A stretch of DNA of 64,000 nt from Mobula hypostoma (Eukaryota), in assembly GCF_963921235.1 (NCBI RefSeq), contig NC_086097.1, forward strand, positions 67,644,001 to 67,708,000, in the 5' to 3' direction. Below, one piece after another: positions 1 through 53,230 of this stretch. Position numbers and translations under genes: made by a program. Numbering within the stretch: the first letter of the stretch is position 1; each line of letters begins with the position of its first letter. The notes under the pieces are model-generated. The model had not been told where the DNA came from. It saw only the letters and a list, made by a program, of their open reading frames with translations, and did no database searches.

Positions 1-1228
1 CGCGGGTGAAGAAACCTATACTGTGGTCCTTCCCCACCGGGCCCTTGCGGTGGCTGCACCGAGTTTCAGTGCGTCCCTCAGCACGTACTCCTGCAGCTGA
101 GAATGTGCCAGTCGACAGCATTCTCCCACGGACATCTCCATGTGCTGGTAGATCATCAAGTTTCGGGCCGACCAAAGAGCGTCTTTCACCGAGTTGATGA
201 TCTGCCAGCAGCACCGGATGTTGGTCTCCGTGTGCGTCCCCGGGAACAGCCCGTAGATCAGAGAGTCCTCTGTTACGCAGCTGCTGGGGATGAAACGTGA
301 CACTAGCCCGTCTATCCTCCTCCACACCCTCTTTGCGAACTGGCAGTGTGCAAAGAGGTGGGTCACAGACTCCTCCTCACTGCAGTCGTCCCGTGGGCAG
401 TGGGGTGCGGAGACGATGTTCCGGGCGTACAGGAGGGCTCTGACTGGGAGGGCCCCTCTCACCGCCAGCCAGGCGAGGTCTTGGTGCCTGTTGGTGAGAT
501 CTGGCGATAAGGCATTTTGCCAGATGAACTGGACAGTCTGCTCAGGGAACCACCCCACTGAGTCCATCACGTCCTTCTCCTGCAGTGCCTGCAGGACACT
601 ACGTGCCGACCACTACCTGATGGCCCTGTGGTCAAAGGCGTTCTCCTGGAAGAACTTTGCTACGTAGGACAGGTATGCTGGCAACGACCAGCTGACTGGG
701 GCGTTGCGCGGGAGTGGGGCCAGACCCATCCTTCGTAGCCAGGGCGACAGGTAGAACCTGGGCACATAGTGGTACTTGGTGCCCACATACCTGGGTTCTA
801 CACACAACCTGATGCAGCCACATACGAAGCTGGCCATCAGGGTGAGGGCGACATTGGGGACGTTCTTGCCCCCGTTGTCCAGGGACTTGTGCATGATGGT
901 CCGTCTCACCCGCTCCATCTTGGATCCCCAGACGAATCTGAAGACAGCCCGGGTGATTTCCGAGCTGTAGGAGCGGGGGACGGGCCAGACCTGCGCCAAG
1001 TACAGCAGCCCTGAGAGCACCTCACACCTGATGACCAGGTTCTTGCCCGTTATCGACAGGGAGCGCCCTCCCCACAGTCCCAGTTTCTGTTTCACCTTGG
1101 CAGTCCGCTCCTGCCAGTTCTTATTGCACGCCTCATCCCCTCCGAACCAGATCCCCAACACCTTCACGTGGTCAGACCTGATGGTGAAGGGGACGCTGGA
1201 TCGGTCGGGCCATTTGCCGAAGAGCATG
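1..1228 (-). mobile_element. 5'-truncated Tx1/L1-clade non-LTR retrotransposon, ORF2 C-terminus (RT thumb and CCHC zinc finger)
   Basis: ORFs 613..1329 and 16..570 are in the same frame, separated by one TAG. Motifs VKVLGIWF, KLGLWGGRSLSITGKNLVIR and CPRDDC...ESVTHLFAHC. GC content drops sharply near 1228. Confidence 0.88.
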
Positions 1229-3387
1229 GAACTGCAGTTACCAAGGGTGTGTTTATGAGGCACGCAGTGTATGAAACTCAGAAAAGTGCCCTCAGAACAT
1301 TGAAGATGAGTACTGGTAGTTTCTAGCAATTACCTCTTTAGCTGGCAGGAGCAGGGCAATATAGGTGACAAGTGCTAGTAAATACCAGGGTCTACAAATG
1401 GAATTATATAGCACATTTAAATCAATAGTTGCCTATTAAATTTGAGGATCCCTGATCTTTGGTTAGTTTCCAGTGCTGTCGATAACTGAGGCTCCAATGC
1501 ATACATTATTTGTCAGAAAATTTCTCAGCCATTTATTTACAACTTATGATTCTTCTACCTGGCGTACTGGCAGAGTCCTGACATGAATTGCAAATATTTT
1601 CAAGTACTTCTCCAACTTTGCTTCTCATAGTTCTTGAGTAGTTGATGCATTTTACCCATTTCTGACAATATCCACATGAATGCTGTAAATTACCCAAAGC
1701 AGAGCAGTGTGCAAGGGAGATTGGTGTACTTTTGTGGGAGAAGGAATGCCTTTCTCATTGTTAATGCATCCAATTCCATAACACTCCTACCTGATTTGAT
1801 AACTGACAAAATTACGAACTACAAGAAAAAAAACACTTAAATTTCTGTGGTTGAAATATCGGCATTTCAAATCAAACTTCTGTCAGATGGAAAATGGTTA
1901 GAGACGCCATCAGCATCCTCCAAATATTAATCACAAATGTGTTACACAATGAATGAATTCTGGACGGTAGCACAAAGAATCCTGAGTTCTGAAGAAGCAT
2001 TTTAATAACTTCTGTGAATCAATACATATAGGATTCTCTAAATGATGACATATTGTAACATCAATCTCTAATGTTATTGGCCGTTGGCCAATGTCAGTCT
2101 ATGTTAGTAAACAGCAGCTGTTCAAGAGGGTATGTTGTATTTGTCTATATTTGTGCTTCCATCCCCTGAGAACTGGTTACCCAACACTGTGGCAGGCATG
2201 AATAGAAATGATGATTAAAATGCATATGTACATTAATAACACTGCACCCAGATATAGCATTAATTATTGCTACAAATATGAGCAATCATAAGAATAACAG
2301 AGAAAAATAATTCATCATTCAAAAGCTTTAATGATCTGAAATGCTTGGAAGGTGCTTATTAGTTGAACATGTTAACACTGGTAATTTTTGGTTCTTTTTT
2401 AAGTTTGTGCATCTGATTTTTCTTTAATTAAAAAAAACATTACAACAGTATTCCCTACATGCCCTTAATTTGGCAGAAGCACCAAATTACAAATCATCCT
2501 CACCAGTTTTTATAAATAACACTGAGTTTGTGCACTATTCCATCACGGGGAATGGATGAGGGTAGCCTGATCCTCGACAATTGCAAAACTATCATAGGAT
2601 AATCAAACATGTAAGGAAATAGGGAGTTCTTTTGCATTTTTCTTTGAATTTTCTTCTCTTATTGCATTTGTGTCCAGTGAGTACACACCAAGTGTGTAAT
2701 TGGAAAAAGAACCCCTAGATCTAACCCTGTGTAGCAGAAAGCATCAAAGCACTATCAGAATGAGTCATCACACTGGTATTTTGATATCACTACCAATAAT
2801 TTAATTTTTCTTTATTGTTGAAGCACATTTGGGATCCAGTAAAATATCTCAGTTCAAAATTGAAAACATTTGTTACTAATTGGACATAAACATATGAAGG
2901 ATTTATTTTACACTCTCTGGACTTTGGACCTTTCATTATTCAGGATGGCTGATGAGTGACCTGATCTAAAGTAAATGTGGAATCTCTTCCATATTCTTCC
3001 ATTATCTTGTGCTTGGAATTTTTCATCCCACTCCCTCCCCTTTATTATCACAGGACAAATAGGTTCAGGAGCTACAGCATTGTGTCTTGGGACTAAATTC
3101 TAATTAACCTTTCTCTGCACAAAATACTGGAATCTGATTATCAACTTCAGATGGACATCAAAACATATTCATACACAGCTGTTATTAAAGTCTGGCCCCA
3201 AAATACTGTAGAGCATTTCCTTACAAACATCTATAAGCGCGAATTTATTCCTGCTGAGACATCTTTGGGTTATTTCTTATTAATATTCTTGAAGGAATAC
3301 TTCACACTTAACACAATTGTCTTCTCAGGAAAATTATTTTAGGAAGCTCATTTTGCAGAGTTTTTATAGAATTAATCGTATACTCAC

Positions 3388-3494
3388 AATCCAAGTGACT
3401 ATGCCTGATCCCTTCCACGTCCTCAGCATGAATGAAGTAATAGCATCTTTTACCCACGATATCTACTGGAGTTAGGTCCATGTAGTCACTAATA
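3388..3494 (-). CDS. npas3: NPAS3 coding exon (PAS-B; about exon 9), 107 bp
   Basis: (R)[35 protein letters not shown](L). Acceptor CTGCAG|T completes the split codon CG|T; donor T|GTGAGT. Confidence 0.97.
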
Positions 3495-4115
3495 CTGCAG
3501 TTTTGAAGCAGAAATGAAACAACATTAAAAGTGCAGATCCTTGAAAGAGTAAATTGAAACAACTTGAAAGCACATTATAGTAAAAATATTTATTTACAAC
3601 AATCTAATGTTGATAAATTTGTCAATCTAATGTTGACAAATGCTGCAGATACGCTGAGTATTTCCAGCGTTTCTCGGTTTCTATTTCGAACTGTATCGCA
3701 TCTGCAGTTCTTTTGCACTCTTTGATTACATCATATTTTGATTGACACATTCGATGGTAACTAAAAACACTTGAAATTGCAAAAATGGACAAAACCAACA
3801 GAGAACTGTGATGGTGAATGTAACCAAGTATAAAATAAATATAAGCTAACAGGTTCGTGGGTCCTCCGTTGCTTGCCACATGTCTGTGTGTACTCAGGCG
3901 TGTGGGAAGGTTTGTTGTTCATAACATTCTTGTAGAATTCGAGTGGGGTGGAGAGTCACGGAGATCTGTTGAGCAGTTGAGACTGTCACTCATTGTGAGC
4001 TGCCAGCAGTGTCAAAAATTATGATTAGGAAAAAAAAAGTGACAGACGGAAATCTCCACAGATCTTCATTTAAAAAAAAGAACAGGTATATAAAGTAGAA
4101 GGAAAAACTGCTTAC

Positions 4116-4309
4116 CGGTTTTCACAGTAAACTATACTTAGGTCCATATTTACTCTGGTGACAAACATCTGGCAGTCAATCCGAACTTCATTTATTGTTG
4201 GAGGAGGCAAAGCATGAGCCACAACGACTAGGCCGATGATTTGAGTGGGCAGTACACGTCCATGGGAATGAGAAACTCGCAATCTTAACCGTCCTGTTAC
4301 ATGAATGAC
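4116..4309 (-). CDS. npas3: NPAS3 coding exon (linker to start of PAS-B; about exon 8), 194 bp
   Basis: Read by hand (not in the ORF track): [64 protein letters not shown](R). Acceptor TTTTGTTTTAG|GTC and donor CG|GTAAGC. Continues the preceding exon in phase 0. Confidence 0.97.
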
Positions 4310-4465
4310 CTAAAACAAAATAATATCGCAAGGATGTGTAAGTACTAATGGTCTACCAGATCATCGGTGTTCAACCATCAAGGCATAGGGAAATGTCATT
4401 CACTTTAACATGGTAATCTTTCTAAATCTGGCTGCAATCGATTTACTTTACGTCTTTCTCTGGAC

Positions 4466-5385
4466 TAAGCACATCTTTCCTCCGCTTCCCCCCCCCCCCC
4501 GCTTTCTGCAGGGATCACTCCCTACGCAACTCCCTTGTCCATTCGTCCCCCCGATCCCTCCCTACTGATCTCCCTCCTGGCACTTATCCGTATAAGCAGA
4601 ACAAGTGCTACACATGCCTTTACACTTCCTCCCTTACCACCATTCAGGGCCCCAAACAGTCCTTCCAGGTGAGGCAACACTTCACCTGTGAGTTGGCTGG
4701 GGTGATATATTGTGTCCGGTGCTCCCGATGTGGCCTTCTATATATTGGCGAGACCCGATGCAGACTGGGAGATCGTTTTGCTGAACACCTACGCTTTGTC
4801 CGCCAGAGAAAGCAGGATCTCCCAGTGGCCACACATTTTAATTCCACGTCCCATTCCCATTCTGACATGTCTATCCACGGCCTCCTCTACTGTAAAGATG
4901 AAGCCACACTCAGGTTGGAGGAACAACACCTTATATTCCGTCTGGGTAGCCTCCAACCTGATGGCATCAACATTGACTTCTCTAACTTCCGCTAATGCCC
5001 CACCTCCCCCTTGTACCCCATCCGTTATTTATTTATATACACACATTCTTTCTCTCTCTCTCCTTTTTCTCCCTCTGTCCCTCTCACTATACCCCTTGCC
5101 CATCCTCTGGTTCCCCCCCCCCGCTTTTCTTTCTCCTTGGGCCTCCTGACCCATGATCCACTCATATCCCTTTTGCCTATCAACTGTCCAGTCTTGGCTC
5201 CATCCCTCCCCCTCCTGTCTTCTCCTATCATTTTGGATCTCCCCCTCCCCCTCTCACTTTCAAATCTCTCACTAGCTCTTCTTTCAATTAGTCCTGATGA
5301 AGGGTCTCAGCCCGAATCATCGACTGTACCTCTTCCTAGAGATGCTGCCTGGCTTGCTGTGTTCACCAGCAACTTTGACATTTGT
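4466..5385 (+). mobile_element. Penelope-like element (Neptune type), 3' part: GIY-YIG endonuclease plus pseudo-LTR
   Basis: GVIYCVRCSRCGLLYIGET...RFAEH...VATHFN...EQHLIFRLGSLQPDGIN ending at TAA 4995. Nearly identical to 12810-13735. Confidence 0.92.
5290..5325 (+). ncRNA. Degenerate minimal type-I hammerhead ribozyme in PLE pseudo-LTR
   Basis: AGTC CTGATGA AGGGTCTCAGCCC GAAT CATC GACT; the GAAA and CGTC elements are mutated. Confidence 0.65.
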
Positions 5386-5639
5386 ACTTATTAAGATCTT
5401 GCTAACAATCAATGAGAACATTCAAGAGGAAGTATCACTTGGTGCTTCTGAAAACAGAGCATTTAACTATAGATCATATCTGTGTTTTACAGTTGAATCA
5501 AAGATCAATGGGAAAATCAAAAGGCCTTTAAATCCCAATCTATCCCTCTATCAGAGTCCTGTAACAAACATAGATTGTCTCTGAAATTCCCACATTGAAA
5601 GGCAAATTTACCTAAATTGTTATTAAATGCTCTAAAAAC

Positions 5640-6640
5640 AAACCAGGAAATTATAGGTGGTGACCCTGACATCAGTAGTGGGAAAGTTATTGGAAGGTAT
5701 TCTAAGGGACTGAATATATGAGTATTCGTATAGACATGGACTGATTAGGGATAGTAAGCATAGCTTTGTGTGTAGTGGATCATGTCCAACCAATCTTATA
5801 GAGTTCTTCAAGGAAGTTATCAGGAAAGTTAATGAAGGCAAGGCAGTGGATGTTGTCTACATGGACCTTATCAAGGTATTTGATAAGGTCCTGCATTGGT
5901 CAAGAAGGTTCAATTTCTCGGCATTCAAGATGAAGTAGTAAATTGCAATAGATATTGGCTCTGTGGGAGAAGCCAGACAGTGGTAGTAGATAATTTCCTC
6001 TCTGTGGAGGCCTGTGAATAGTGGAGAGCCTGGGGTTTCGGAGTTGGGTCTGTTGTAGTTTGATATCTATATCAACGACCTGGATGATAATGTGGTTAAC
6101 TTGATTAGCAGATTCATGGATGTCACCAAGATTGGGTGTGTAGTGGACAGTGAGGAAGACTATCAGACCTTGCAGCGGGATTTGGAAGAGCTGGAAAAAT
6201 GGGCTAAAAAAGGGCAGGTGGAATTTAATGTGGACATGTGTGAGGTGTTGCACTTCGGTAGGACCAAAATGGGTAGGTCTTACATAATGAACGGTAGGGC
6301 ACTGAGCAGTGCAGTAGAACAAAGCAGTCTGGGAATTCAGGTCCATAATTCATTGAAAGTGGCATCACAGGTAGATAAAGTCATAAAGAAAACTTTTGGC
6401 ATATTGGCCTTCACAAATCAAAGTATTGATTACAAGAGATGGGATGTTATGCTGAAATTGGATGAGAGTTGGTGAGGCCTAATTTGGAGTATTGTGTACA
6501 GTTTTGGTCACCTAACCACAGGAAAGATGTAAATAAGTTTGAAAGAGTACAGAGAACATTTACAAGGATGTTGCCTGGATGGAGAACCTGAGTTATACAG
6601 AAAGATTGATTATGTTAGGACTCGATTCCTTGGAACATTG
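5640..6640 (+). mobile_element. CR1 LINE fragment (RT domain), decayed
   Basis: YRPVSLTSVVGKLLE-like and VDVVYMD..K.FDKV motifs, plus FNVDMCEVLHFG and VRPNLEYCVQFW. Confidence 0.9.
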
Positions 6641-8490
6641 GTCTGGCTTTGGTGGCCCAGGGAGAGCACAAAATTCAAAGTTCAAATTAAATTTATTAAC
6701 AAAGTACATATATGTCACCATATACAACCCTCAGATTCATTTTCTTGTGGGCATACTCAATAAACTGAATAACCATTATAGAATCAATGAAAGACCGCAC
6801 CAAAAGGATGGGCAGCCGGTGTGCAGAAGATAACAAACTGCAAATACAAAATGAAAAAAGAAACACTGATAATAATAATAATTAATCACCACCCACTTAG
6901 ATAACCACAATATACTTACAGAAGAAGAGAAGGATGCTGAAAGGTTATTAAAGGATATAAAGGACAATTGACAATAGATTCTGTAACTCTACATCAAACC
7001 TGGCAGAAAAACAGAAATCCTTCATGTTGTTATGTTGACTACCAAAAAGCATTTGATTCTGTGCCACATTCATGGTTAATAGAAAGTAATTAATATGTAT
7101 AAACTACACCCAATACTTATGAAATTCGCACAACGTCTGATGATGCATTGGCATACTATATTCAACCTATCTATTAACAACCAAGAAAGAACAACCAGCG
7201 TTATCAAAATAAACCAAGCATTTTCGAGGGCAAATCTCTAAGCATGCTATGGTTTTGTCTAACTTTAAACTCACTCACTAATATACTGAATCAGACAAAA
7301 ATGTTGTTTCAAATCAGAAACAACCAAACAAATTATACCTTGACACACTTTCCATACATGGATGATTTGAAATTAAACGCTCTTTCATCAGTAAAGCTGC
7401 AATAATTAATTCAAATAGTAGAACTGTCTTCTAAAGATATAAACAGGAACACTGGACTAGATAAATCCACAACATTAAACATAAAGAAAGATGCAATAGA
7501 ACTAATAGAATATGAAACACAGCAGCAGGATACAATACAACTGATGGATGGATATCAACAGGCAAACAAATACCATAGTACAATCAAGGGAAAACTTTTG
7601 ACAGAATTTACTTCAAGGCTTAAGAAAATCTGCCAAATGGAGCTCAATAGTAAAAATATAACAAAGGCAATTAACATTTCCGCTAAACCTATATTATCAT
7701 ATTCTTTTGGCATAATAACTTGCAAAGAAGAATAAGAACTGAGAAGACAAATTTTAGAAAACACTGCAGTATGTACACTCTAATGGCTTAGATTAACACT
7801 GCCTAGGACAAAAGGTGGAAGACGGATACAGACATAAAAAATTTACACAACAGTCAGATAAAATCTTTCAGGATATATGTCCATCAATGAAAACAGGATT
7901 CAGCATGCCACGTGAGCATATGCTATCTGATGAGAAGTATACAACATTAACATAAACAAAAGCACAACCGAGAAAAATGAAGAAATCTTCACTGTAAAAG
8001 AAAAAGTTAACCAATGGAAGAGCATGAACCTCCATGGAAGACATCCCCATCATATGAGCAGACTAGATGTTAACAAGGACGTGTCAAACACCTGGCTCAT
8101 TGTTGGAGACCCCTTCCCAGAAATAGAAGATTCCTTGTGGCAATACAGGACCAGGTGGTTAACACAAAAAAAAGACTGGAAGTGCATAATAAAAGACCAA
8201 TAAATTCAAGATGATAAATGCAAAAAAAAGCCAAGAGAAACTAGAAACAATCTAACACATTACAGGATCCTGCAGCAGTTTAACTCAATCTGATTACTTA
8301 CATAGACACAATCAAATGGCAAATATCATTCAGCAATATCTTGCTTTAAAATACAAACTTATAAAAGAAACCATACCTTGCCATAAACACATGCCCGAAC
8401 CAGTATTATAGTCAGAGTCCCACAAATTATATTATGACCGATCTGTTATTATAGAGAGGACAATCCATAATAACTGTTCCGATATAAAAT

Positions 8491-9522
8491 CAGGGGCAGG
8501 TAGTTTTGAGGAAGTAGAGAAGCCACAGAAGGATTTAGACACATTAGGAGAATGGGCAAAAAAGTGGCAGATGGAATACAGTGTTGGGAATTGAATGGCC
8601 ATGCACTTTGGAAGAAGAAATAAAAGGGTTGACTATTTTTTAAATGTAGAGAAAATTCAAAAATATGAGGTGCAAAAGGATTTGGGAGTCCTTGTGCAGG
8701 ATTTCCTAAAGGGTAATTCGCAGGTTGAGTCTGTGGTAAGGAAGGTAAATGCAATGCTAGCATTCATTTCAAGTGGATTAGAAGATAAAATCAAAGATGT
8801 ATTGTTCAGGCTTTATAAAGCACTGGTGAGGCCTCACTTGGCGTATTGTGAGCAGCTTTGGGCCCCCTATACAAGAAGTGATGTGCTGACACTGGAGTGG
8901 GTTCTAAGGAAGTTCTCGAAAATGATTCAAGAATTGAAAATGAGGGTAACCTATTTGGAACTTATTGAATGTTGAAAGGCCTTGATAGAGTGGATGTGGA
9001 GAGAATGTTTCTTATGGTGAGAGAGTCTAGGACTAGAGGACACAGCCTCAGAATAGAGGGATGTCCTTTTAGATGGACATGAGGAGGAATGTCTTTAGTC
9101 AGTGACTGGTGAATCTGTGGAATTCATTGTCACAGGTGGCTGTAGAGGCCGTCTTTATGGATATTTCAGGCAGTGGTTGATAGATTTCTTAAACAAGAGA
9201 GAATCTGCAGCTACTGGAAATCCAAGCAACACACACAAAATACTGGAGAAACTCAGCAGGCCAGGCAACATCTTTGGAAAATAGTATAGTTGACGTCTCG
9301 GCCTGAAACGTCAACTGTACTTTTATCCATGGATGCTGCCTGGCCTTCTGAGTCCTTCCAGCATTTTGTGTGTGTTGATAGATTCTTGATTGGTCAGGGC
9401 ATGAAGAGATACAGAGAGAAGGCAGGAGATTGGGGCTGAGAGGAAAATTAGATCAACCATGATGAAATGGTGGAGCAGACTCAAAGGGCTAAATGCTCCT
9501 ATATCTTTTGGCCTTCTGGTCT
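8491..9522 (+). mobile_element. CR1 LINE 3' end nested in the R4 element
   Basis: QKDLGVLVQD...YKALVRPHLAYCEQLW; colinear with the copy at 35270-36155. Confidence 0.9.
9191..9374. mobile_element. PLE-derived foldback (hairpin) mini-element with about 13-bp TSD
   Basis: Inverted arms of about 70 bp centred on the hammerhead stem II segment. Flanking duplication TTGATAGATT(T)CTT at 9177-9190 and 9375-9387; the empty site is visible in the CR1 copy near 36000. Confidence 0.85.
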
Positions 9523-10200: not shown

Positions 10201-11560
10201 CTGCTGCCTTCCTGTGACAATGCTCCATGCAGATGTACTCAATGGTGGGAAGGGATTTACCTGTGATGGATGGGCTAAATCCACTACTTTTTGCAGGATT
10301 TTCCATTCAGGGACATGGGTGTTTTCATACCAGGCTATGATGCAGCCAGTCAATATACTCTCCACCACACATCAATAGAAGATTGTCAGAGTTTTAGATG
10401 TTATGCCGAGCTTTGCAAACTTGTAAGGAAGTAGAGGCATTGTTGTGCTTTCTTTATAACTGCACTTACTGAGCCCAAGACAGATCCTCTGAAAAGATAA
10501 CACCAAAGAATTTAAAGTTGCTGACCCTTTCTGTCTTTGATCCCCCGGTGAGGACTGGCTCATGGACCTCTGATTTGGTCAGTAATCAGCTCTTTGGTTT
10601 TGCTGCCGTTGGGTGAGAGGTTGTGGTTATGCCACCATTCAGCCAGATTCTCAATCTCCCTCCAATATGCAGGTTTGTAACCACCTTTGATTTGGTCTAA
10701 GACAGTAGTGTTGTCAGAAAACTTGAATATGCCAATTGGAGCTGCGCTTAGACACACAGCCGTAAGTATAAAGCATGTAGAGCAGTGGTCTAAGCACACA
10801 GCCTTGGGGTGCACCTGTGCTGATGGAGATCGTGGAGGAGATATTGTTGTCCATCTGAACTGACAGGGATTTGCAAGTGAGGAAATCAAGGATCCAATTG
10901 CACCAGATGGTTTTGAAGCCAAGGTCTTGAAGCTTATTGATAAGTTTTGTATTGATTAGCTTATTGATCACAAACATTGTTCAGGGGAGCAGGCAAGTCT
11001 TCCCATATGTAGGTGTAGCTCTTAGAGAAGGGACATGCTTAGACCACTAGCTCTAACCTGGCTGTGGGTTCAAAACTGGCTGGTCACTTGCAGCTGTATG
11101 AACTGTCTACGGGCAGTTTCAGGTTGGCCAATGGCTGGCTAATTGTGGATTAGTTGCTTCATGATGCCGGATGGGTAACAGTTAGAGACTTAATCCCAGT
11201 TATGCTGTTGCTGGCTTTGCTGCCTGACAGGCATCTGAAAACTGAATAGCTGCTTTAGGTTGGTAGAGGGTATGCTAATCCAAATTTGTAATTATGATAT
11301 AGAGTGTCTGGGGCAGGAACTCAAGATAGATCACCTGCACCTAGGTTGTCATCCTCAGCTTCTCTGTTTTGTGAAAGTGGAGACTTCCAGTACAATTGAT
11401 TCCACACTGCCACTATATGTCTGTGCAGTTGAGGGCTTAGTGTAAAGCAGCACATGTGGATAGCAGATCAGATTGTACATAATCCAACCCAATTGGTTTA
11501 TGGATTCACAGAAAGATATACTCAAAAACCCTAGGGAGAAAATAACATCATATTTTTATA

Positions 11561-11677: not shown

Positions 11678-12143
11678 ATCATATTTTTATACTCTTTTGC
11701 AAATGCAATCATCCATTCTTCATAGATGATATTGAGTTCACCATGGTCATGATGCAGATCCATATCTTTCCACATTGTTGCATTTGAGGAAAGGTTTTTT
11801 TCTGCGTTGTTCACTATAGCCATATTTCACTGTGAAGTGAACGGAGATTTTAACATTTGTAATCTTGATGAACCTCAATTGGGTATCTGAGGAGGTGATG
11901 AGGGAAATTAAGGAAGAGCATACATTTATAAAAACAAAAACAGAAAATACTGCAAAATTGAGCACTTCATGTGGCGTCTGTGGAAAGGGAAGCAGTTAAC
12001 TGCTCAGATTAAAGAAGCTTCATCAAAATGGAGAAAAAGAAATAAAAACAACAGGAATTCTGCAGATGCTGGAAATTCAAGCAACACACATCAGAGTTGC
12101 TGGTGAACACTGCAGGCCAGGCAGCATCTCTAGGAAGAGGTAC

Positions 12144-12179
12144 AGTCGACGTTTCAGGCCGAGACCCTTCGTCAGGACT
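12144..12179 (-). ncRNA. Minimal type-I hammerhead ribozyme, intact core, sense to NPAS3
   Basis: Minus strand reads AGTC CTGACGA AGGGTCTCGGCCT GAAA CGTC GACT: stem I AGTC/GACT, core CUGANGA...GAAA, GUC cleavage triplet, palindromic ACGU stem III. Confidence 0.8.
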
Positions 12180-13637
12180 AACTGAAGGAAGAGTTAGTAA
12201 GGGATTTGAAAGTGGGAGGGGGAGGGGGAGATCCAAAATGATAGGAGAAGACAGGAGGGGGAGGGATGGAGCCAAGACTGGACAGGTGATTGGCAAAAGG
12301 GAAGCAGCGCCAAGGCGTTGACTTTATTAACTTTGCCTCCAACTTTCACCCTGCCCTCAAGTTTACCTGGTCCATTTCTGACACCTCCCTCCCCTTTCTA
12401 GATCTTTCTGTCTCTATCTCTGGAGACAGCTTATCTACTGATGTCTACTGTAAGCCTACTGACTCTCACAGCTATCTGGACTATTCCTCTTCTCACCCTG
12501 TCTCTTGCAAAAATGCCATCCCCTTCTCGCAATTCCTCCATCTCCACCGCATCTGCTCTCAGGATGAGGCTTTTCATTCCAGGACGAGGGAGATGTCCTC
12601 CTTTTTTAAAGAAAGAGGCTTCCCTTCCTCCACCATCAACTCTGCTCTCAAACACAACTCCCCCATTTCACGCACATCTGCTCTCACTCCATCCTCCCGC
12701 CACCCCACTAGGAATAGGGTTCCCCTGGTCCTCACCTACCACCCCACCAGCCTCCGGGTCCAACATATTATTCTCCGTAACTTCCGCCACCTCCAACGGG
12801 ATTCCACCACTAAGCACATCTTTCCCTCCCCCCATCTCTCTGCTTTCCGCAGGGATTGCGCCCTACACGACTTCTTTGTCCATTCGTTTCCCCCCCATCC
12901 CTCCCCACTGATCACCCTCCTGGTACTTATCCTTGTAAGCGGAACAAGTGCTACACATGCCCTTACACTTCCTTCCTTACCACCATTCAGGGCCCCAAAC
13001 AGTCCTTCCAGGTGAGGCGACACTTCACCTGTGAGTCGACTGGGGTGATATACTGCATCCGGTGCTCCCGATGTGGCCTTCTATATATTGGTGAGACCCG
13101 ACGCAGACTGGGAGACCGCTCTGCTGAACACCTACGCTCTGTCCGCCAGAGAAAGGAGGATCTCCCTGTGGCCACACATTTTAATTCCACATCCCATTCC
13201 TATTCTGACATGTCTATCCACGGCCTCCTCTACTGTAAAGATGAAGCCACACTCAGGTTGGAGGAACAACACCTTATATTCTGTCTGGGTAGCCTTGAAC
13301 CTGATGGCATGAACATTGACTTCTCAAACTTCCGCTAATGCCCCAACTCCCCTTCGTACCCCATCCATTATTTATTTTTATACACACATTCTTTCTCTCA
13401 CTCTCCTTTTTCTCCCTCTGTCCCTCTGACTATACCCCTTGCCCATCCTCTGGGTTTCCCCCCCCCCCGGCTTTTCCTTTTCCCTGGGCCTCCTGTCCCA
13501 TGATCCTCTCATATCCCCTTTGCCAATCACCTGTCCAGCTCTTGGCTCCATCCCTCCCCCTCCTGTCTTCTCCTATCATTTTGGATCTCTCCCTCCCCCT
13601 CCCACTTTCAAATCTCTTACTAACTTTTCCTTCAGTT

Positions 13638-13673
13638 TGTCCTGACGAAGGGTCTCGGCCTGAAACTTCGACT
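13638..13673 (+). ncRNA. Hammerhead ribozyme motif, stem III mutated
   Basis: TGTC CTGACGA AGGGTCTCGGCCT GAAA CTTC GACT. Confidence 0.7.
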
Positions 13674-13840
13674 GTACCTCTTCCTAGAGATGCTGCCTGG
13701 CCTGCTGCGTTCCCCAGCAACTTTGATGTGTGTTGCTTGAAAAAGAAATAAAGTTAGTCTAAGTAGCAGATAAGGCAAGGGAGGGCAATGGTGGAACAAA
13801 GGAAATTTCTGTGATTAGGTGAAATAATGTAGCTGTTTAG

Positions 13841-14021
13841 AAACACGAGATTCTGCAGATGCTGGAGATCTAGAGCAACAGATATAAAAACGCTGGAGGA
13901 ACTCAGCAGGTCAGGCAGCATTCGAAAAGAATAAACAATGGATGTCTCGGCCCAAAACATTGATAGTACTCTCTTCCGTAGATGCTGTCTGACCTGCTGA
14001 GTTCCTCCAGCATTTTGTGTG
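13841..14021. mobile_element. PLE-derived foldback mini-element with perfect 13-bp TSD
   Basis: TGTAGCTGTTTAG at 13828-13840 and 14022-14034; same architecture and axis as 9191-9374. Confidence 0.88.
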
Positions 14022-15000
14022 TGTAGCTGTTTAGGAGCTAATACTGCAAAATCTACGTGATGCTGTCTAGTCTATTGGGAGTTCCCAGCAGGGCAGAGTA
14101 TACCAATGAAAGAAAAAAGAACCCAGAAAGGTAGGCAAAAATGACCAGCTCCAAGACAAACCAGTTCTAATGCAAACAGAAAGAAACAGCTAATTATTTA
14201 AAGCTGAAGAAGTCCAGCAGGCATTTAGAGGTGCCTTATTTCTTGCCATGAGTTGTTTTTTTATGTTTAGGGTTCTTATGACATAAATATTTTGCAACCA
14301 AAGGGATACTTTTGGAATTGGTATTGTACTATTATGACAAATGCACTGCAATATTCCACGATCGATAGCTGAGTAAAATAACCAAATATTCTGCTTTTGA
14401 TATGGTTTGAAAGATATTATTGGAAGCACTTTCTGACATGTTTGGAATAAGAGCAGGGGACCATTGCATTTAAATTCTTGATCTCCCATTCTACTTTATC
14501 ATGGCTTCTGCACTTGACGTGTTTACCTGCATTGTACTTATGCCACAACCTGACTGGAAGGTATACGAACAAAAGCTTTTCACTAAATCTCAATACTTGT
14601 AGCAATACTACATGAATACCAGTATGTCCACTCAAACAAGCCTCATCTTGACACTTAACCTGAAATTATTGTATTGGGTTTACTAACCTTTTTTTCCTAG
14701 ACATAGTAAGTGGAAATGGGTTTTTCTTATGTTAGGGTTCTAATGTTATGTGGGTTCAAAGATAGGTTCAGTCCTTTTCAATACTGAAGTCATTGAGATG
14801 TAAAGGACAACTATACATCAATAAGCCAGGGGTTTAAGGTCTGTGTAAGCACAGACATGAGGATGCTGGCACTCAGCTGTCTGGTAGTTGGCTCCATGAT
14901 TTTGACCCAAAAATCGTGATTAACTGACACCAAACAGTAAAGAATTGGAGTGGCTTATTTTCCGTTGGTCCCAAGAGACAAGATAGAGAAAAGGGGAAAA

Positions 15001-15448
15001 GTGTGTGTGTGTGTGTGTGTGTATGCGTGCAGTGGGGTGTGTGCGCACGTGTGGTGGGGTGCATGTGTGCATGTGTTGGTGGTGGTGTGTGTGTGTGTGT
15101 GTGTGGTGGGGTGTGCATGTTGGTGGTGGTGTGTGTGTGTGTGTGTGTGTGTGCATGTGTTGTGGGGTGCGTGTCTGTGTTGTGTGGTGGGGTGTGTGTG
15201 TGTGTGCACGTACGGCAGGGTGTGCGAGTGTGTCTTGTGGCGGGGTGTGTGTGCATGTGCGTGTGGTGGGGTGTGTATGGTGGTGTGTGTGCGCGTATGG
15301 TGGGGTGTGTGTGTGGTGGTGGTGTGTGTGCATGTGCGTGTGGTGGGGTGTGGGGTGTGTATGGTGGTGTGTGTGCGCGTATGGTGGGGTGTGTGTGTGG
15401 TGGTGGTGTGTGTGCATGTGCGTGTGGTGGGGTGTGTGTGTTGGTGGT

Positions 15449-15499
<51 letters not shown>
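15001..15499. repeat. Compound (TG)n/(TGG)n microsatellite with an internal about 84-bp tandem duplication
   Basis: Almost entirely G and T on the + strand; the unit ATGGTGGTGTGTGTGCGCGTATGG recurs at 15277 and 15361. Confidence 0.95.
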
Positions 15500-15500
<1 letters not shown>

Positions 15501-16504
15501 GAGAGACAATTGGGAATGTTGACCAGAAGAGTTAAACTAGCTCAAAAGTCTTGTGTGGGTATGAGATTTGGGTTTAATAATAATCAGAATTTTGATTTAC
15601 AAAGTGTGAGACATTTATGATTAGGACAAAATATTGCTCAATTACATTACAGCTTCCCATCCAATCAAATGACCTTGTGGATCTTCATGTGTATACATTC
15701 ATGTATACATGTGCAAGTGCTTACAAACAGCATCAGGTGGGAAGAAGTTTCAGAGGTTCAAAGGTTCATTTATTATCAAAGTATACAGCTTCTCCAGATA
15801 GATGAATTTTAATGCTTATACTGTATAAGAAAGGCATTAAGTGTAAATGCGACTATCAGCATATCTGAGGGCCTGTGTATACAAGGGGTCACCTGGAGGT
15901 ACACATTATGGGGTATATGAAGCATTGTAATAAGCTAAGATGGGTAATCTACCATTACATCCTCATTTTGACTGGTATTTGTTGCCTTTATTTCTGCAGA
16001 CTGGGTCATACTTCTGTCCACAATCTATGATTTTAGCCTCTTAAGGGAAACAGAAGTGTTAACTATAGAAGTATTTCTTATGGAATATTTGAGAAACACA
16101 AGCTAACTGGACTATATTTCAAAGAAAACTTGATTCAGTGAGAATATATGCATTTACCACAAAATAGCCATTCAGTGAAGTGAGATCATCAATATGTATT
16201 TTCTTGAGCTATGTGCTTCAAGTCGAGTGCCATGTAGAGTCAGTTCTAAGAGGCTCTACAAAATCGATTGAACATACTTGTGCAGCTTTTGGAGGACCAT
16301 TATTCCTTGCTATTGTGAAGAGTCTGATCAGAAAAATAACTACGGACTGAGTATACAAGAAAAAGATATTGTACAAAGGACTCATCATGATTAACTTGTG
16401 AAGAGAAAATGGAACAGCTAAAAATTGCATTTTATTAAGTTCAGTCTTTGTGCAAACTAGATGACAATACTATAGACTTCTACTGATCCTGTAAATTTTA
16501 TGTA

Positions 16505-22014: not shown

Positions 22015-22345
22015 ACTCACTCTTCTTCCCGCTCTCATCGGGTAAAGAATATAAAGGTCTGACAGCAGATATCTCCAGGCTCGAGGGCAGCTGCTATCAG
22101 GCTCTTCAACAGGCAACTTACACAATAAGATGGACTCTGGATCTCACAATCTGCATTGTTAGGATTTTGGACTTTACTGTTTACCTACGCTACTGCTCCT
22201 GTCACTTTTACACTTAATTCTGCATTGTCCCGACGAAAGATCTCAGCTCAAAACATTGACTGCTTATTCATTTCCACAGGTAGTACCTGACATGCGGATT
22301 TCCGCCAGCATTTTCTGTACGTTGCTCGATATTGTTTTACCTTGC
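22015..22345 (+). mobile_element. Rex1/Babar-type 3' fragment containing a decayed PLE hammerhead/tail insert (about 22227-22325)
   Basis: LFFPLSSGKEYKGL resembles the Rex C-terminus; the insert begins GTCCCGACGAAAGATCTCAGCTCAAAACATTGACTG. Confidence 0.55.
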
Positions 22346-25492: not shown

Positions 25493-26153
25493 AACACCAA
25501 GATTCATTTTCTTGCTGGCATACTTAATAAATCCAATAACCATAATAGAATCAATGAAAGACCACACCAACAGGCAGACAACTGTCTGCAAAAGACAACA
25601 AACAATGCAAGTACAAAAAGAAAGAAAAATAAATTAATAAACAATAAATGTCGGGAACATGAAATGAAGAGTCCTTGAAAGTGAGTCCATAGGCTGTGGG
25701 AGTAATTTAGTGATAGGGCAAGTGAAGTGGAGTGAAGTTATTGCCTCATTCAGGAGCCTGATGTGTGAGGGGTAACAACTATTCCTAAACCTGACTGTGT
25801 GAGTCCTGAGTCTCCTGTACAATACCCACTATTTTTTGCAGGATTTTCCATTCAAGGGCATTGGTATTCCTATACTAGGCTGTGATACAGCCAATCTCCA
25901 CTTCATATCTACAGAAGTTTGTCAAAGTTACTGATATCATGCCGAATCTTTGCAAAATCCTAAGGAGGTCGAGGTGCTACCATGCTTTCTTTGTAATCAC
26001 ACTTATGTGCTGGGCAAAGGACAGCTCCTCTCCACTGATAACACAGAGAAATTTAAAGTTGCCGATCTTCTCCCCCTCTGATCGCCTGATGAGGACTGGC
26101 TCCTGGACCTCCAGTTTTCTCCACCTGAGGCAAATAATCAGCTCCTTGGTGTT

Positions 26154-26262
26154 CCTTCAGTTAGTTAGTCCTGACGAAGGGTCTCGGCCTGAAACGTCGA
26201 CTGCGCCTCTTCCTATAGATGCTGCCTGGCCTGCTGCGTTCACCAGCAACTTTGATGTGTGT
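26154..26262 (+). mobile_element. 109-bp solo PLE pseudo-LTR fragment with 14-bp TSD (one mismatch)
   Basis: AGCTCCTTGGTGTT at 26140-26153 and AGCTCCTTGGAGTT at 26263-26276. Confidence 0.9.
26167..26202 (+). ncRNA. Minimal type-I hammerhead ribozyme, intact core
   Basis: AGTC CTGACGA AGGGTCTCGGCCT GAAA CGTC GACT, identical over 36 nt to the minus-strand copy at 12144-12179. Confidence 0.8.
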
Positions 26263-28333
26263 AGCTCCTTGGAGTTGCTGAATTTGAGTAAGAAGTTATT
26301 GTTGTGGCACCACTCAGCCAGATTTTTAATCTCCTCCTATACGCTGATCAGTCACCACCTTTGTTTCGGCCTGTAACTGTAGTGTTATCAGCAAACTTGA
26401 ATATGTCATTGGAGCTGGGCTTAGCCACACAGTCATAAGTGTAAAGTGAGTAGAGCAGGGGCCTAAGCACACGGCCTTGTGGTGCATCTGTGCTGATGGC
26501 GATTGTGGAGGAGATGTTGTTGTCAATCTGAATTGATGAGGTCTGGAAGTGAGGAAATCAAGGATCCAATTGCACAAGGAGGTATTGAGGCCAATGTCTT
26601 GAAGCTTATTGATTAGTATTAAGGGTATGATAGTATTGAATGCCGAGCTGTACTCTATAAAGAGCATCCTGATGTACACCTCTTTCCTGTCCAAATGTTC
26701 CCGTTTGAGTGAAGAGCCAATGAAATGGCATCTACTGTAGGCTTGTTGTGGCGGTAGGCAAATTAGAATGGATTCAAGTCATTTCTCAGGCAGAAGTTCA
26801 TATGTTTCATCACCAAACTCTTAAAACACTTCATCAGTGCTACTGGATGATCATCACCGAGGCAGGTTCTTCCTAGGCACTGGTATAATCGAAGCCTGCG
26901 AAAAGCAGTTGGGTACCTCAGACTGCTGAAGTGAGAGGTTAAAGATCTCAGCTGTTGTTCAGCACAGGTCTTTAGTACTCGGCCACATACACCATCTGGG
27001 CCAGATGCTTCCTATGGATTTACTCACCTGAAGGATGCTCTCACATTGGCATCAGAGACCGAAATCATAGGATCACTGGGGCTGTGGGAGATCATGATGG
27101 TTCCTCCATGTTTTGATGGTCAAAGCAAGCATAGAAGACACTGAGCTAACCTGAGAACAAAGCTCTGTTTTCATCTATGTCGATTGATTTCCCTTTGTAA
27201 GAGCTGATAGCATGCAAGACCTGCAAGAGTTGTCAAGTATCCTTCATTGATTCAAGTTTAGTCCAGAATTGCCACTTCACCATGAGATGGCTTTCCAGAG
27301 ATCGTACCTGGACCTCTTGTATCTCTCTTGGTCACCAGAGTTGAATACCTCTGATCTGGCCCTCTACAGATTATGGATCTCATGATTCACTTAGGGCTTC
27401 TGGTTGGAGAAGACTCGGAGTGGTTTTGTGGGGACACACTTGTCTACAACTGTTTTTATAAAGTCTATGACAACAGTGGTGATATTCATTCAGATCTACA
27501 GGTGAGTTCTTTAACATGGCACAGTCCACCAACTCAGAGCAACCACATTGCCGCTCCTCTGCCTCCTGTGACCACCTCTTTGTTGTCCTAATCTCTGGAG
27601 CCTTGATCTTTAGCCTCTGCTTTTATGAAGGTAGGAGAAGGACATGCATACAGGCAGTTTGGACATGAAACAGTCGGCATTCCTTATCTTAGAAGAGCAC
27701 TGGTCTAGTGTGTTGGGACCTCGGGTATGCAGGTTATATGCTGATGGTAATTAGGCACGGATTTCTTCAAACAAGCCTGATTGTTTACCTTAAGTTATCT
27801 GCTGTTGGAATTTGAGATTTAATGAATATTTTCATTGCCAATTTCAGAAGCCTACCTTCAACACTTTGATCTGGAAGCATCTTCTTTTGATAATGTGCTC
27901 TTTGTAGAGTTGAACGACACTCTCTTTATACTGCCAAATAGTAAACTCAGATCAGGATTTACAAGCTAACAGAATTAATCTCTGTAATTCCCTCAATTTA
28001 CCACCATCACTTTTGGGGAAGATAAGCAGAGCCCCTGCAGAACTGATGTAAACAACTTGCTATTTATGATATTTCTCCAAGGATTCCATTGCAGTCGCAG
28101 CGGCAGATCAGGGGAACCCCTGCTGAACTCACAGCAAACGTTTTTATTCGGAATTTAAGTCGAGATTTAGACAAAAACCAAGAACAATTTTTTTTTAAAA
28201 ATGAGTAAAGTCTAATAAATTAGAAACACTTCATAAGAATATACTTAAGTAAATTTCAGAATAACATGTTTCACTTTTTTTTTGGACTCATATGATTTTA
28301 ACTAATGATTGCCTAGAACTTTTATCATGTAAT

Positions 28334-28663
28334 CATAAACACGAGAAAGGCTGCAGATGCTGGAAATTCAAAGCAACACACACAAAATGCTGGAGGAACT
28401 CAGCAGGACAGGCAGCATCTATGGAAAAGAATAAACAATCAACATTTCAGGCTGAGGTCCTTTTTCAGGACTGAAAAGGAAGGGGGAAGATGCCAGAATA
28501 AAAAGGAGGGAGGGGAAGGAGGCTAGGGGGGAGGTGATAGGGGAAGCCAGGTGGGTGGGAAATGTAAAGGGCTGAAGAAGGGTATCGGTGGCAACAACTG
28601 TTTATTCATTTCCTTTGATATTGCCTGACCTATTGAGTTCCTCCAGCATTTTGTGTAAGTTGC
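28334..28663. mobile_element. PLE-derived asymmetric foldback with 13-bp TSD and degenerate hammerheads
   Basis: TTTATCATGTAAT at 28321-28333 and TTTATCGTGTAAT at 28664-28676; minus-strand CAGTC CTGAAAA...GAAA TGTT GATTG at about 28436-28473. Confidence 0.8.
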
Positions 28664-34294: not shown

Positions 34295-34414
34295 ATGCTG
34301 CAAAGAACACAATGATGGAGGTACTCAGTAGATCAAGGAAATGAACAATCACGTTTCAGATCAAAAGCTTTAATCTGTTCTGATGAAGGGTCTCAACCTG
34401 AAACATTGACTGCC
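34295..34414. mobile_element. Old PLE-derived foldback remnant with hammerhead motif
   Basis: CTGATGA (34380) AGGGTCTCAACCT GAAA CATT GACT, preceded by an inverted decayed arm. Confidence 0.6.
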
Positions 34415-35067: not shown

Positions 35068-36155
35068 CTAGCATGGAAAGAGCAGCATCTGATTGGCAGG
35101 AAGCAAAGAGTGGGAATAAAGGGAGCCTTTTCTGATTGGCTGCCGGTGACGAGTGGTGCTCCATGGGGGTCTGTATTGAGACTGATTCTTTTTACGTTGT
35201 ACGTCAATGATTTGGATGAAGGAATTGATGGCTTTGTTGCAAAATTTGTAGACAATATGAAGATAGGTGAAGGGGCAGGTAGTTTTGAGTAAGGAGAGAG
35301 GTCACAGAAGGACTTGCACAGATTAGGAGAATGGGCAAAGAAATGGCAGATGGAATACAGTGACGGGAAGTGTATGGTCATACATGTTGGTAGACGAAAT
35401 GAAAGGGTTCACTATTTTCTAAATGGTGAGAAAATTAAAAAAACTGAGTGCAAAGGGACTTGGGAGTTCTTGTGCAGGATTCCCTAATGGTTAATTTGCA
35501 GATTGTGCCTGTGGTGAGGAAGACAAATGCGATGTTAGCATTCATTTCAAGAGGACTAGAATATAAAAGCAAGGATGTAATGTTGAGGCTTTATAAAGCA
35601 CTGGTGAGGCCTCACTTGGAGTATTGTGAGAAGTTTTGGGCCACTTATCCAAGAAAGAATATGTTGATACTGGAGAGGGTTCAAAGGAGGTTCACAAAAA
35701 TGATTCCAGGATTGAAAGGCTTGTCATATGAAGAGCCTTTGATGGCTCTGGGCCGGTGTTCACTAGAATTCAGTCGAATGAGGGGTGACCTAATTGAAAC
35801 CTATCAAATGGTGAAAGGCCTTAATAGAGTGGATGGTGGGAAAGTCTAAGATCAAAGGACACAGTTTCAGGATAGAGGGTATCCTTTCAGAATGAAAAAT
35901 GAGGGGGGTTTTCTTAAGCCAGAGATTGGTGAATCTGTGGAATTCGTTGCCACAGACAGCTGTGGAGGCCAATTCTTTATGTATATTTAAGGAAGAAGTT
36001 GATAGATTCTTGATTGGTCAGGGGATGCAGGGATATGGGTGGATGGCAGGAGATTCGGGCTGAGAGGAAAATTAGATCAACAACAATGAAATGGCAGAGC
36101 ACACTTGACGGGCCAAATGGCCTAATTCTGCTCCTAAATCTTATGGACTTATGAC
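35068..36155 (+). mobile_element. CR1 LINE 3' 1.1 kb
   Basis: WLPVTSGAPWGSVL...YVNDLDEG...FVDNMKIG and YKALVRPHLEYC. Confidence 0.92.
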
Positions 36156-41804: not shown

Positions 41805-42910
41805 AATCATAGAGCACTACGCCAGAAAAATAGTCCCTTCGATCCATCTAATCCATAATGGCCTGGTTTTCTGCCTAGACCATCTACCTGTACCTGGACC
41901 ACCATATCCCTTCACATCTCCTCATTCATGTACCTATTAAAATTTCTCTTAAATGTTACAATTAAATCTGCATCCCCCACTTTCACTCACAGCTCATTCC
42001 ATACTCACACCACCCTCTGAGTGAAGAAGATCCCCCTCAGGTTCCTCCTAAATATTTCACTGTATACCCTAGATTTATGACCTCTAGTTCTAGTCTCACC
42101 CAAACTGAGGTGAAAAGGCCTGAATACATTGACCTTTTCTATATCCCTCACAATAAATATCTGTGCAGTTCTAGTTATAACATTCCAAATCTGGCCTCAC
42201 CAATGACTTTCACAACTTCAACCTAACATCTCAGGTCCTGGCCTCTTATTTCTCACCTGCCTATCACCTCCCCCTGGGTCCCCTCCTTCTTCCCTTTCTC
42301 CTAAGGCCCACTCTCCCTCTCCTATCAAATTTCTTCTTCTCCAGCCCTTGACCTTTCTCACCTACCTGGCTTCACATCATCCTCCATCCAGCCTCCTTCC
42401 TCTCCCACCCCCCAGCTTTTTATTCTGGCAGCTTCCCCCTTCCTTTTCAGTCCTGAAGAAGGGTCTCCGCCCGAAATATTGACTGTTTTTTAATTTCCAT
42501 AGATGCTGCCTGACCTTCTGAGTTCTTCCAGCATTTTGCTACTCTGGATTTCCAGCACTTGTAGAATTTCTTGTATTTATCTCAACTGCTGAACCCAATG
42601 CCCTGACTAATGAAGGCCAATGTGCCAAATGCACTCTTTGCCACCCTATATACAAGTGTTGCTACTTTCAGGGAACTTTGGATCTATATTCCCAGGTTAC
42701 ATTGTTCTACTTGCACATCTCAATGTCCCACCATTCATCCTACCCTGGTTTGTCCTCCCAAAGTGCAACAACCTGTTTACATTCAACTTCACTTGTCATT
42801 TTCAGCTATTTTCCTGGCTGATCATTTCACAAGCTTTCTCAATGTCCATCACTCCCCAGATCTTGCAAATCTGTTGATCTAAATTACCATATTATCATTT
42901 AAATCATTAA
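41805..42910 (-). mobile_element. CR1 LINE 3' fragment interrupted by a PLE pseudo-LTR
   Basis: CR1-type tail at about 41805 and CACCACCCTCTGAGTGAAGAAG (FFTQRVV reversed). Confidence 0.8.
42240..42578 (+). mobile_element. PLE pseudo-LTR (older subfamily) with hammerhead motif at 42448-42485
   Basis: CAGTC CTGAAGA AGGGTCTCCGCCC GAAA TATT GACTG followed by ATAGATGCTGCCTGACC and the tail. Confidence 0.8.
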
Positions 42911-45227: not shown

Positions 45228-45343
45228 CTTATAGCCTGATGATTTGATATGAACTCCCCGCTTGGTCAATGTTGACTTCATTCTGATAAAAAATGATCGT
45301 TCCAAGGTATTGTCAATATTCAGTAAAGTCGGGCTAGTGGATT
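45228..45343 (-). CDS. npas3: NPAS3 coding exon (end of PAS-A region; probably equivalent to mammalian exon 7), 116 bp
   Basis: Translates (E)[44 protein letters not shown]...[10 protein letters not shown] is NPAS3-type rather than NPAS1-type (FFVRMK...GLHVKASGYK). Acceptor ...CCCACTCTAG| (phase 1) and donor AAG|GTAAAT (phase 0). Confidence 0.96.
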
Positions 45344-52417: not shown

Positions 52418-53230
52418 ATTCGAGGAAATGTGCAGATGCTGGGATTTCAAGCAACACACATCAAAGTTGCTGGTGAACGCAGCAGGCCAGGCAGCATCTC
52501 TAGGAAGAGGTACAGTCGTCGTTTCAGGCTGAGACCCTTCGTCAGGACTAATTAAAAGAAGAGCTAGAAAGCGATTTGAAAGTGGGAGTGGGAGGGGGAG
52601 ATCCAAAATGATAGGAGAAGATAGGAGAAGACAGGAGGGGGAGGGATGGAGCCAAGAGCTGGACAGGTGATTGGCAAAAGGAATATGAGAGGATCATGGA
52701 ACAGGAGGCCTAGGGAGAAAGGAAGTGGGGGGGGGGGAAGACCAGAGGATGGGCAAGGAGCATAGTGAGAGGGACAGAGGGAGAAAAAGGAGAGAGAGAA
52801 AAAGAATATATATACACATACACACACATATATATAATAATAATAAATAAATAATGGATGGGGTACGAGGGGGAGGTGGGCATTAACGGAAGTTAGAGAA
52901 GTCAACGTTCATGCCATCGGGTTGGAGGCTACCCAGGCGGAATATAAGATGTTGTTCTTCCAACCTGAGTGTGGCTTCATCTTTACAGTAGAGGAGGCCG
53001 TGGATAGACATGTCAGAATGGGAATGGGGTGTGGAATTAAAATGTGTGGCCACTGGGAGGTCCTGTTTTCTCTGGTGGACAGAGCGTAGGTGTTCAGCGA
53101 AACGGTCTCCCAGTCTGCGTCGGGTCTCGCCAATATATACAAGGCCGCATCAGGAGCACCGGACGCAGTATATCACCCCAGCCGACTCACAGGTGAAGTG
53201 TCGCCTCACCTGGAAGGACTCACTGGGGCC
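52418..53230 (-). mobile_element. Penelope-like element 3' part (GIY-YIG plus pseudo-LTR)
   Basis: Reverse complement of about 12990-13740; hammerhead at 52514-52549 with the triplet GTC changed to GAC. Confidence 0.92.

Follow-up and report, generated by a model that had tools for sequence, protein, structure and literature searches.

Judged from its letters, the recurrent 36-nt motif of the window (the whole 64,000-nucleotide stretch of DNA analyzed) is a minimal type-I hammerhead sequence located in the pseudo-LTRs (pLTRs) of a young, very abundant Neptune-type Penelope-like element (PLE). The motif is probably a weak ribozyme that needs the element protein or a second copy to work, and it is probably not what makes the ends of the template RNA. 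The following sections describe the copies in the window, the element that carries them, the conservation and variation of the core, and the start points of young copies relative to the predicted cut.

Hammerhead motifs in the window

The same 36 nt were found by sequence comparison at 12144-12179 (minus strand) and 26167-26202 (plus strand), confirming the intact core that the preliminary description had reported at both places. All core positions are complete in these two copies (C3 U4 G5 A6 N7 G8 A9, G12 A13 A14 A15.1, U16.1 H17), and the motif plan comprises 4-bp helices, a G-U pair at 10.1-11.1, an extra A and the palindrome ACGU. Helix I has 4 bp, whereas the canonical Rfam-type feature is a 6-bp helix I with loop contacts. 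No Rfam hammerhead match was obtained at the gathering score in the whole window, nor at E values up to 10 in the interval 11900-14100. The variant copies listed previously are also all present, each at most one base from its given place, as is the deletion form at 57209. They differ from the 36-nt motif by 5 mismatches at 5290, 2 at 13638, 10 at 22226, 8 at 28437 (minus strand), 7 at 34376, 6 at 42449 and 2 at 52514 (minus strand). A loose core pattern matched seven times in the window compared with 1.62 expected, and none of 100 shuffles reached seven. Only the copies at 12144, 26167 and 42449 combine all 11 invariant letters of the core with the two 4-bp helices and a helix III that is palindromic; each of the others departs from this through a changed core letter, a broken palindrome or a mispaired position.

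The motifs at 12144 and 13638 are the two ends of one insertion, bounded by a 14-bp target-site duplication read from the sequence (left copy 12033-12046, plus strand; right copy 13739-13752). Its left arm (12047-12301, minus strand) is an inverted, 5'-truncated pLTR copy with a tail of ~40 nt; it holds the intact hammerhead at 12144-12179, which lies sense to the NPAS3 pre-mRNA and has a predicted cut between 12148 and 12147. The other arm (12316-13738, plus strand) is a 5'-truncated PLE body with the reverse transcriptase (RT) thumb, a CX4CXXC linker, a frameshifted GIY-YIG domain, the 3' UTR and a pLTR without the full tail. The endonuclease frame of this arm matched Pfam GIY-YIG with an E value of 6e-4, under the cut-off, and the hammerhead in its 3' pLTR (13638-13673, plus strand) has a broken helix III palindrome. 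The second intact motif sits in a short solo copy of about 110 nt (26152-26262, plus strand) that starts ~44 nt before the cut and has a 10-bp target-site duplication.

Two further 5'-truncated copies are located at 4464-5378 (plus strand), with an endonuclease frame and a hammerhead at 5290-5325 in which A15.1 is changed, and at 52423-53231 (minus strand), with a tail and a hammerhead at 52514-52549 in which U16.1 is changed. Older material includes a truncated copy at 56302-57291 (plus strand), whose motif near 57209 is without helix II, and two pLTR copies: at 42439-42583 (plus strand) the hammerhead (42449-42484) still matches the minimal descriptor, and at 28337-28482 (minus strand) the hammerhead (28437-28472) has a changed G8. 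A decayed pLTR copy at 22226-22331 (plus strand) has changes at U4 and G12, and a lone hammerhead remnant with a broken palindrome remains at 34376-34411 (plus strand). Head-to-head pairs of short pLTR pieces occur at 9191-9377, where the junction is inside the ribozyme, and at 13842-14028, where the pieces are older. Many more such pairs, 170-250 bp long and joined in or near the ribozyme, are scattered across the surrounding 1.264-Mb region; they resemble MITE-type palindromes, yet they are single PLE insertions.

Some other features of the window were recorded in passing. A pyrimidine tract and AG stand just before the core at 12180-12200 (minus strand), and in all subfamilies, and resemble a 3' splice site. 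The 100 nt downstream of the cut (12047-12143, minus strand) are predicted to fold into a long stem that includes the tail; this stem is kept between subfamilies with loop changes and may contain both reverse-transcription starts. A long degenerate (CA)n/(GT)n tract with open frames in every direction fills 14873-15620. By eye, two long frames within 16-1329 (minus strand) resemble parts of a Tx1/L1-type element, namely the end of the RT and the C-terminal zinc finger, and the frames at 6059-6475, 8595-8975 and 35448-35849 and at 10560-10955 and 26326-26778 resemble CR1/L2-type and Rex-type LINE fragments.

The element, its protein and its abundance

Across the 3.48-Gb genome, a 28-nt motif pattern was matched exactly 28,067 + 28,197 = 56,264 times and an 18-nt pattern 95,091 times, whereas the reversed control of each had no match. 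The element family covers at least 4.5% of the 1.264 Mb surrounding the window. The motifs previously counted as about nine copies are real, but they are a local sample of about 10^5, and two of them (12144 and 13638) share one insertion.

Twenty loci with long open frames were taken from 150 scored protein matches. One of them, L068 (G000:C18:74749800-74759700), contains a whole 3,511-bp unit with two identical 167-bp pLTRs and a 7-bp duplication. Each pLTR carries the hammerhead in sense orientation, the two motifs being spaced by 3,511 nt, in agreement with the preliminary description of a minimal type-I hammerhead in a PLE pLTR, and the identity of the pLTRs is a sign of very recent activity. 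The L068 frame is interrupted by a stop codon at position 57 and shifts near 870, and the 5' pLTR extends 102 nt upstream of the predicted cut. The whole element sits inside another repeat. A second locus, L061, provides an open 1016-aa RT/GIY-YIG frame (DKG at 418, YIDD near 662 and YIG at 933) with RT motifs A-C, a CX4CXXC linker at residues 883-891 and GIY-YIG/CCHH; Pfam matches were RVT_1 (E 5e-5) and GIY-YIG (E 0.003), both under the curated cut-offs. The family protein also has a long proline/serine-rich stretch in its N-terminal third, and its nearest named protein is from Chiloscyllium (71%), which points to a cartilaginous fish as the likely host.

The ribozyme lies about 300 nt after the ORF stop and about 165 nt ahead of the next ATG. 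Insertions are truncated or inverted and are flanked by target-site duplications, and they finish at two 3' ends ~40 nt apart, with the tail in 78 and without it in 77 of 156 copies; a two-ended signature of this kind in PLEs is explained in PMC11167929. One ORF with a PLE-type RT plus GIY-YIG at the C terminus, pLTRs placed in tandem or inverted, 5' truncation and an optional tail of 30-40 nt are the features of an endonuclease-bearing (EN+) PLE, and all were found here. The linker between RT and endonuclease is of the Neptune type, as the earlier assignment to a Neptune family would have it, and the CX2-5CxxC form is present in 21 of 22 aligned proteins. According to PMC8557442, this linker marks the Neptune and Nematis clades alike; the placement as Neptune is tentative and comes from the linker together with an indirect link, relatives bearing Acropora Neptune ribozyme letters.

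The host gene NPAS3

Two exons in the window (minus strand) match PDB 5sy7_B (NPAS3) with E values of 2.5e-33 and 4.8e-20, far above NPAS1. An NPAS3 exon is located at 4115-4309 (minus strand), with further exons near 3311-3574 and ~45195-45413, and the coding exons of the gene were traced on the minus strand from about C1:68.438 Mb to 67.634 Mb. The third exon, at ~45195-45413, places motif copies between exons in at least two introns, so the intronic location given in the preliminary description stands. Nine intact hammerhead copies inside NPAS3 are sense and eight are antisense, which gives no sign of purge or co-option; loss of sense copies from the gene was considered and was not seen in this small sample. 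Ribozyme copies are evidently tolerated in host introns in both orientations.

It is very unlikely that the copies have been co-opted to process or regulate the NPAS3 pre-mRNA in the way that amniotes use their conserved intronic hammerheads. In favor of such a role, the 12144 copy has an intact motif in the sense orientation, but it is one arm of a recent insertion that is 94-95% like other young copies, it is one of about 10^5, and it is without the long helix I and loop contacts of the amniote intronic hammerheads; the lack of strand bias within the gene also argues against co-option. NPAS3 is simply a landing place for copies of the element.

Conservation of the core in distant relatives

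Protein alignment identified 80 metagenome loci with related elements; 38 of these included the ORF end, and three with fewer than 150 nt behind it were dropped (n = 35). A minimal hammerhead was present on the sense strand 83-300 nt past the ORF end in 12 of the 35 relatives and on the antisense strand in none, compared with 0.05 expected from shuffles. The hammerhead-bearing relatives have 41-53% protein identity. Their catalytic core is kept while the helix letters differ, and the palindromic helix III and G10.1 are kept as well. Position 1 of helix I is C-G in 3, A-U in 7 and U-A in 3, pairing being demanded by the descriptor; strand, position, the extra base (A in 12/12) and G10.1 were not imposed by it. 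Three relatives (L363, L383 and L397) have the same ribozyme letters as the Acropora Neptune motif in Fig. S3 of PMC4209133. The motif was not found in 23 of the 35 relatives within 700 nt of the ORF end, using a descriptor that demands paired helices; these loci, among L351-L430, may be cut short, decayed or equipped with other variants.

Comparison of these sequences supports conservation of the hammerhead core over long distances. By the terms of the preliminary description, a lack of excess core conservation among PLE subfamilies would refute its claim. The core is kept in the 12 relatives, but one subfamily of the present element carries a substitution, A6C (described below), which goes part of the way towards that refutation.

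Variation of the core

In young copies, minor letters make up 0-7% of the core columns and are highest at CpG sites. Within the motif a single change is common: position 11.1 is U instead of C in 86 of 108 young copies of one set and 21 of 34 of another, and a wobble pair is retained. Core position 6 is A in 113 of 114 young copies and in 53 of 64 other older copies, compared with C in 8/8 older copies that have a distinct upstream signature. In the genome-wide search with the 18-nt pattern, C6 occurred 3,902 times, G6 and T6 together 1,943 times and A6 95,091 times; when the upstream context was included, C6 exceeded A6 (3,847 versus 1,294). Examples of C6 copies are L265:1458, L289:1488 and L277:891 (all minus strand). 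Coding remnants lie upstream in 11 of 35 C6 copies, with the coding DNA belonging to a neighbouring copy in one or two cases. A flank tree clusters the C6 copies (7 changes compared with 15.2 when shuffled), and neither this tree nor an endonuclease tree, in which three row pairs share the same DNA, settles whether C6 had a single origin or reverted.

On this analysis, an older coding subfamily was amplified with a core change that would likely weaken cleavage. A6C is known from the hammerhead of phage Bcep176 and is slow in Mg2+ but good in Mn2+, according to PMC3088659 and PMC7151607. A C6 core in repeats was not found in the papers searched.

These substitutions bear on whether the motif cuts at all in this lineage, or is instead kept as a protein-bound fold or sequence, as part of an internal promoter, or as a passenger. 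The C6 subfamily and the prevalence of U at 11.1 are in keeping with an absence of cutting, as are the intact sense copies that have not been lost from NPAS3 introns (9 versus 8) and the Naiad PLEs, which thrive without the motif (PMC8557442, in part). However, what the relatives have kept is precisely the catalytic core, the helices being variable, a G-U at 10.1-11.1 occurs in published PLE motifs, and A6C hammerheads still cleave, slowly or with Mn2+ (PMC7151607, in part). We consider a complete absence of cutting improbable.

Predicted folding

The predicted fold of the lone motif pairs G5-G8 with C15.2-C17, at -10.0 kcal/mol compared with -6.0 kcal/mol for the open form, so the hammerhead core is hidden in it. 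For two strands, the double hammerhead has a predicted energy of -9.5 kcal/mol compared with -28.3 kcal/mol for the best two-strand fold; folding energies of this kind omit tertiary contacts and metal ions. Folding z-scores were unremarkable (-0.37 for the motif and -0.53 for 140 nt). The GUC in the 5' strand was discarded as an alternative cut site, as helix I is unable to close when read from the sequence.

Start points of young copies

The 5' ends were mapped in 156 young copies recognized by an exact match to a 33-nt anchor that lies downstream of the predicted cut; one variant contributed 118 copies and another 38. They came from retrieved loci and the 1.264-Mb region, and an anchor was not used if the edge of its locus was less than 150 nt away. 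The predicted cut site is traversed by 145 of the 156 copies. Two begin at the cut, each of them at an inverted junction where the helix I letters match, and 63 begin 16-57 nt upstream of it. This corresponds to 63 ends in 4,426 exposed bases at -57 to -16 (0.0142 per exposed base), compared with 16 in 6,857 (0.0023) at +31 to -15 and 17 in 9,275 (0.0018) at -58 to -200, an excess of roughly six- to eightfold over the two flanks. The binomial p of 2e-20 is too small because inverted pairs contribute arms that depend on each other and because the hot-spot interval was chosen after a first look at the data; 52 of the 63 ends came from loci fetched later. No copy-start pile-up upstream of a PLE ribozyme was found in the papers searched.

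The pile-up is unchanged by the tail (medians of -34.5 with it and -30 without; p 0.17), it holds among non-inverted copies (30 of 96), and target-site duplications of at least 7 bp flank 19 of 29 pile-up copies compared with 1 of 29 in the control. A fixed product length was rejected as the cause since tailed and untailed copies end alike, later deletions are ruled out by the duplications, and microhomology at inverted junctions is not the sole cause since non-inverted copies show the pile-up too. Together, these data indicate that the place of the pile-up is set by the element and not by product length or later deletion. The peak is broad, fading out towards about -80 without a hard edge, and is centered on TCAGTT just before helix I, a sequence that we take to resemble an initiator.

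We lean towards the reading that the element RNA starts just upstream of helix I; otherwise, the RT may stall at the ribozyme or at a protein bound there. An intron ending at helix I was also considered, as D. virilis Penelope is described as having an internal promoter and an intron that ends at the ribozyme. This was not supported here: the putative branch A varies (G in 15/62), short copies are without a common upstream exon, and no spliced form was seen. No intron-like ends at the ribozyme were present among the 15 joints listed, of 345, when four contig sets were compared with L061; these are contigs, not RNA, and their depth on L061 follows the 5'-truncation profile. None of the holders of the element listed in a search of sequencing runs was recorded as RNA.

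The preliminary description inferred that this family uses self-cleavage in its life cycle, a proposal that the data do not establish: 145 of 156 copies pass the cut and one subfamily carries A6C. In its strongest form, the model put forward in 2014, self-cleavage is obligatory: the two pLTR motifs form a double hammerhead that releases a unit-length RNA, which is religated and copied as a circle for more than one round. In its favor, distant relatives retain the core, G10.1 and palindromic helix III, and A6 is present in 113 of 114 copies of the young expanding group. Full copies carry two same-direction motifs spaced by 3,511 nt and 5' pLTRs extending 102 nt upstream of the cut, as a circle would account for; low activity of Schistosoma motif dimers and trimers is also on record (PMC4209133, in part). 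Set against this, only 2 of 156 copies start at the cut, both being inverted junctions where helix I letters match, an end near -33 is not expected of a circle, the C6 subfamily with coding remnants was amplified, the double hammerhead is predicted to be far less stable than the best two-strand fold, and the anole element did not need cleavage in vitro (PMC11167929, in part). We therefore regard obligatory self-cleavage as unlikely.

Under the preferred reading of a weak, assisted ribozyme, the element RNA would likely begin just upstream of helix I. Priming at the pLTR nearest the RNA start would end in run-off at that point, yielding solo and head-to-head copies of 100-140 nt, and priming at the far pLTR would give long truncated copies. 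Cleavage would be occasional or late, and might serve in trimming of the leader or of read-through transcripts, or in circle closure. A point against this reading is that a circular template, cut and religated, would likewise yield copies through the cut site.

A more specific combination is offered tentatively, as less likely than not: that the RNA starts a few bases upstream of helix I, making the ribozyme a 5'-leader device, that uncut RNA integrates, and that a coding Neptune A6C subfamily spread to thousands of copies or more. If it were true, full Mg2+-dependent catalysis would be dispensable or attenuated, or would have moved to Mn2+ or assistance by protein. The 10^5 genomic copies would be a fossil record of the role of the PLE hammerhead, and among the papers searched the C6 group would be the first example of a hammerhead family with A6C in an animal retrotransposon.

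Comparison with known systems

The arrangement of a hammerhead in a PLE pLTR was already published in 2014 (PMC4209133). As stated, the initial finding matters little: the list already extends from corals to snakes, and cartilaginous fish are one more entry. No chondrichthyan PLE hammerhead was found in the papers searched, although the family may be catalogued in Repbase or Dfam. The side results, the 5' pile-up and the C6 group, bear on why PLEs keep a barely cutting hammerhead that is not needed for insertion in vitro (PMC4209133, PMC11167929 and PMC8557442, each in part). With open frames, identical pLTRs, a sharp map of copy starts and natural A6 and C6 versions together, the role of the PLE hammerhead becomes testable cheaply and clearly.

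The metazoan PLE minimal hammerheads described in the available parts of PMC4209133 share with the present motif a U-rich leader, a short helix I, CUGANGA plus an extra base, G at 10.1, helix II, GAAA, a two-base palindrome and UH, and they are likewise found in both pLTRs, mostly as solo copies, with opposite-strand pairs and an inverted 5' copy. Many motifs in Fig. S3 of that paper also have AG directly before the core. The extra A after CUGAYGA had been called a non-canonical detail, but Cervera and De la Pena reported the extra base as a conserved trait (consensus CUGANGAH), so it is standard in PLE motifs. The differences are that cartilaginous fish are absent among the 56 motifs of Fig. 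S3, that exact copies number 56,264 here compared with 4,000-9,000 for coelacanth and Xenopus, and that the core variant given there is U3-A8, with a 5'-end pile-up or an A6C family not reported in the parts available.

The Neptune element of Acropora digitifera (BACK01051917; Table S1 of PMC4209133, and PMC8557442, both in part) resembles the present family in its RT, CX2-5CxxC linker and GIY-YIG with CCHH, and in its partial tandems, inverted copy and 30-40-nt tail, and relatives of the family carry the Acropora motif; the long proline/serine-rich stretch in the N-terminal third distinguishes the family here. Poseidon PAc of Anolis carolinensis (Frangieh et al. 2024; PMC11167929, in part) likewise has two tail-giving reverse-transcription starts downstream of the ribozyme and insertions copied from uncut RNA. 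It belongs to another clade, and its ORF starts inside the ribozyme, compared with about 165 nt after C3 in the present element. In the same account, cutting by the anole ribozyme required protein, and none of the RNA reads had an end at the ribozyme site.

The phage Bcep176 A6C hammerhead (PMC3088659 and PMC7151607, in part) shares C at core position 6, but it is a single phage ribozyme with full helices, whereas the C6 group is a retrotransposon subfamily of thousands, known from sequence. Non-LTR retrozymes (PMC7229834 and bioRxiv 10.64898/2026.07.22.740005, in part) also have type-I hammerheads related to those of PLE pLTRs, and the 2026 preprint describes hammerhead arrays in one chondrichthyan genome. 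Retrozymes are non-coding tandem arrays, whereas the copies here are scattered fragments of a coding element, truncated or inverted, and an identity with non-LTR retrozymes was rejected on this ground.
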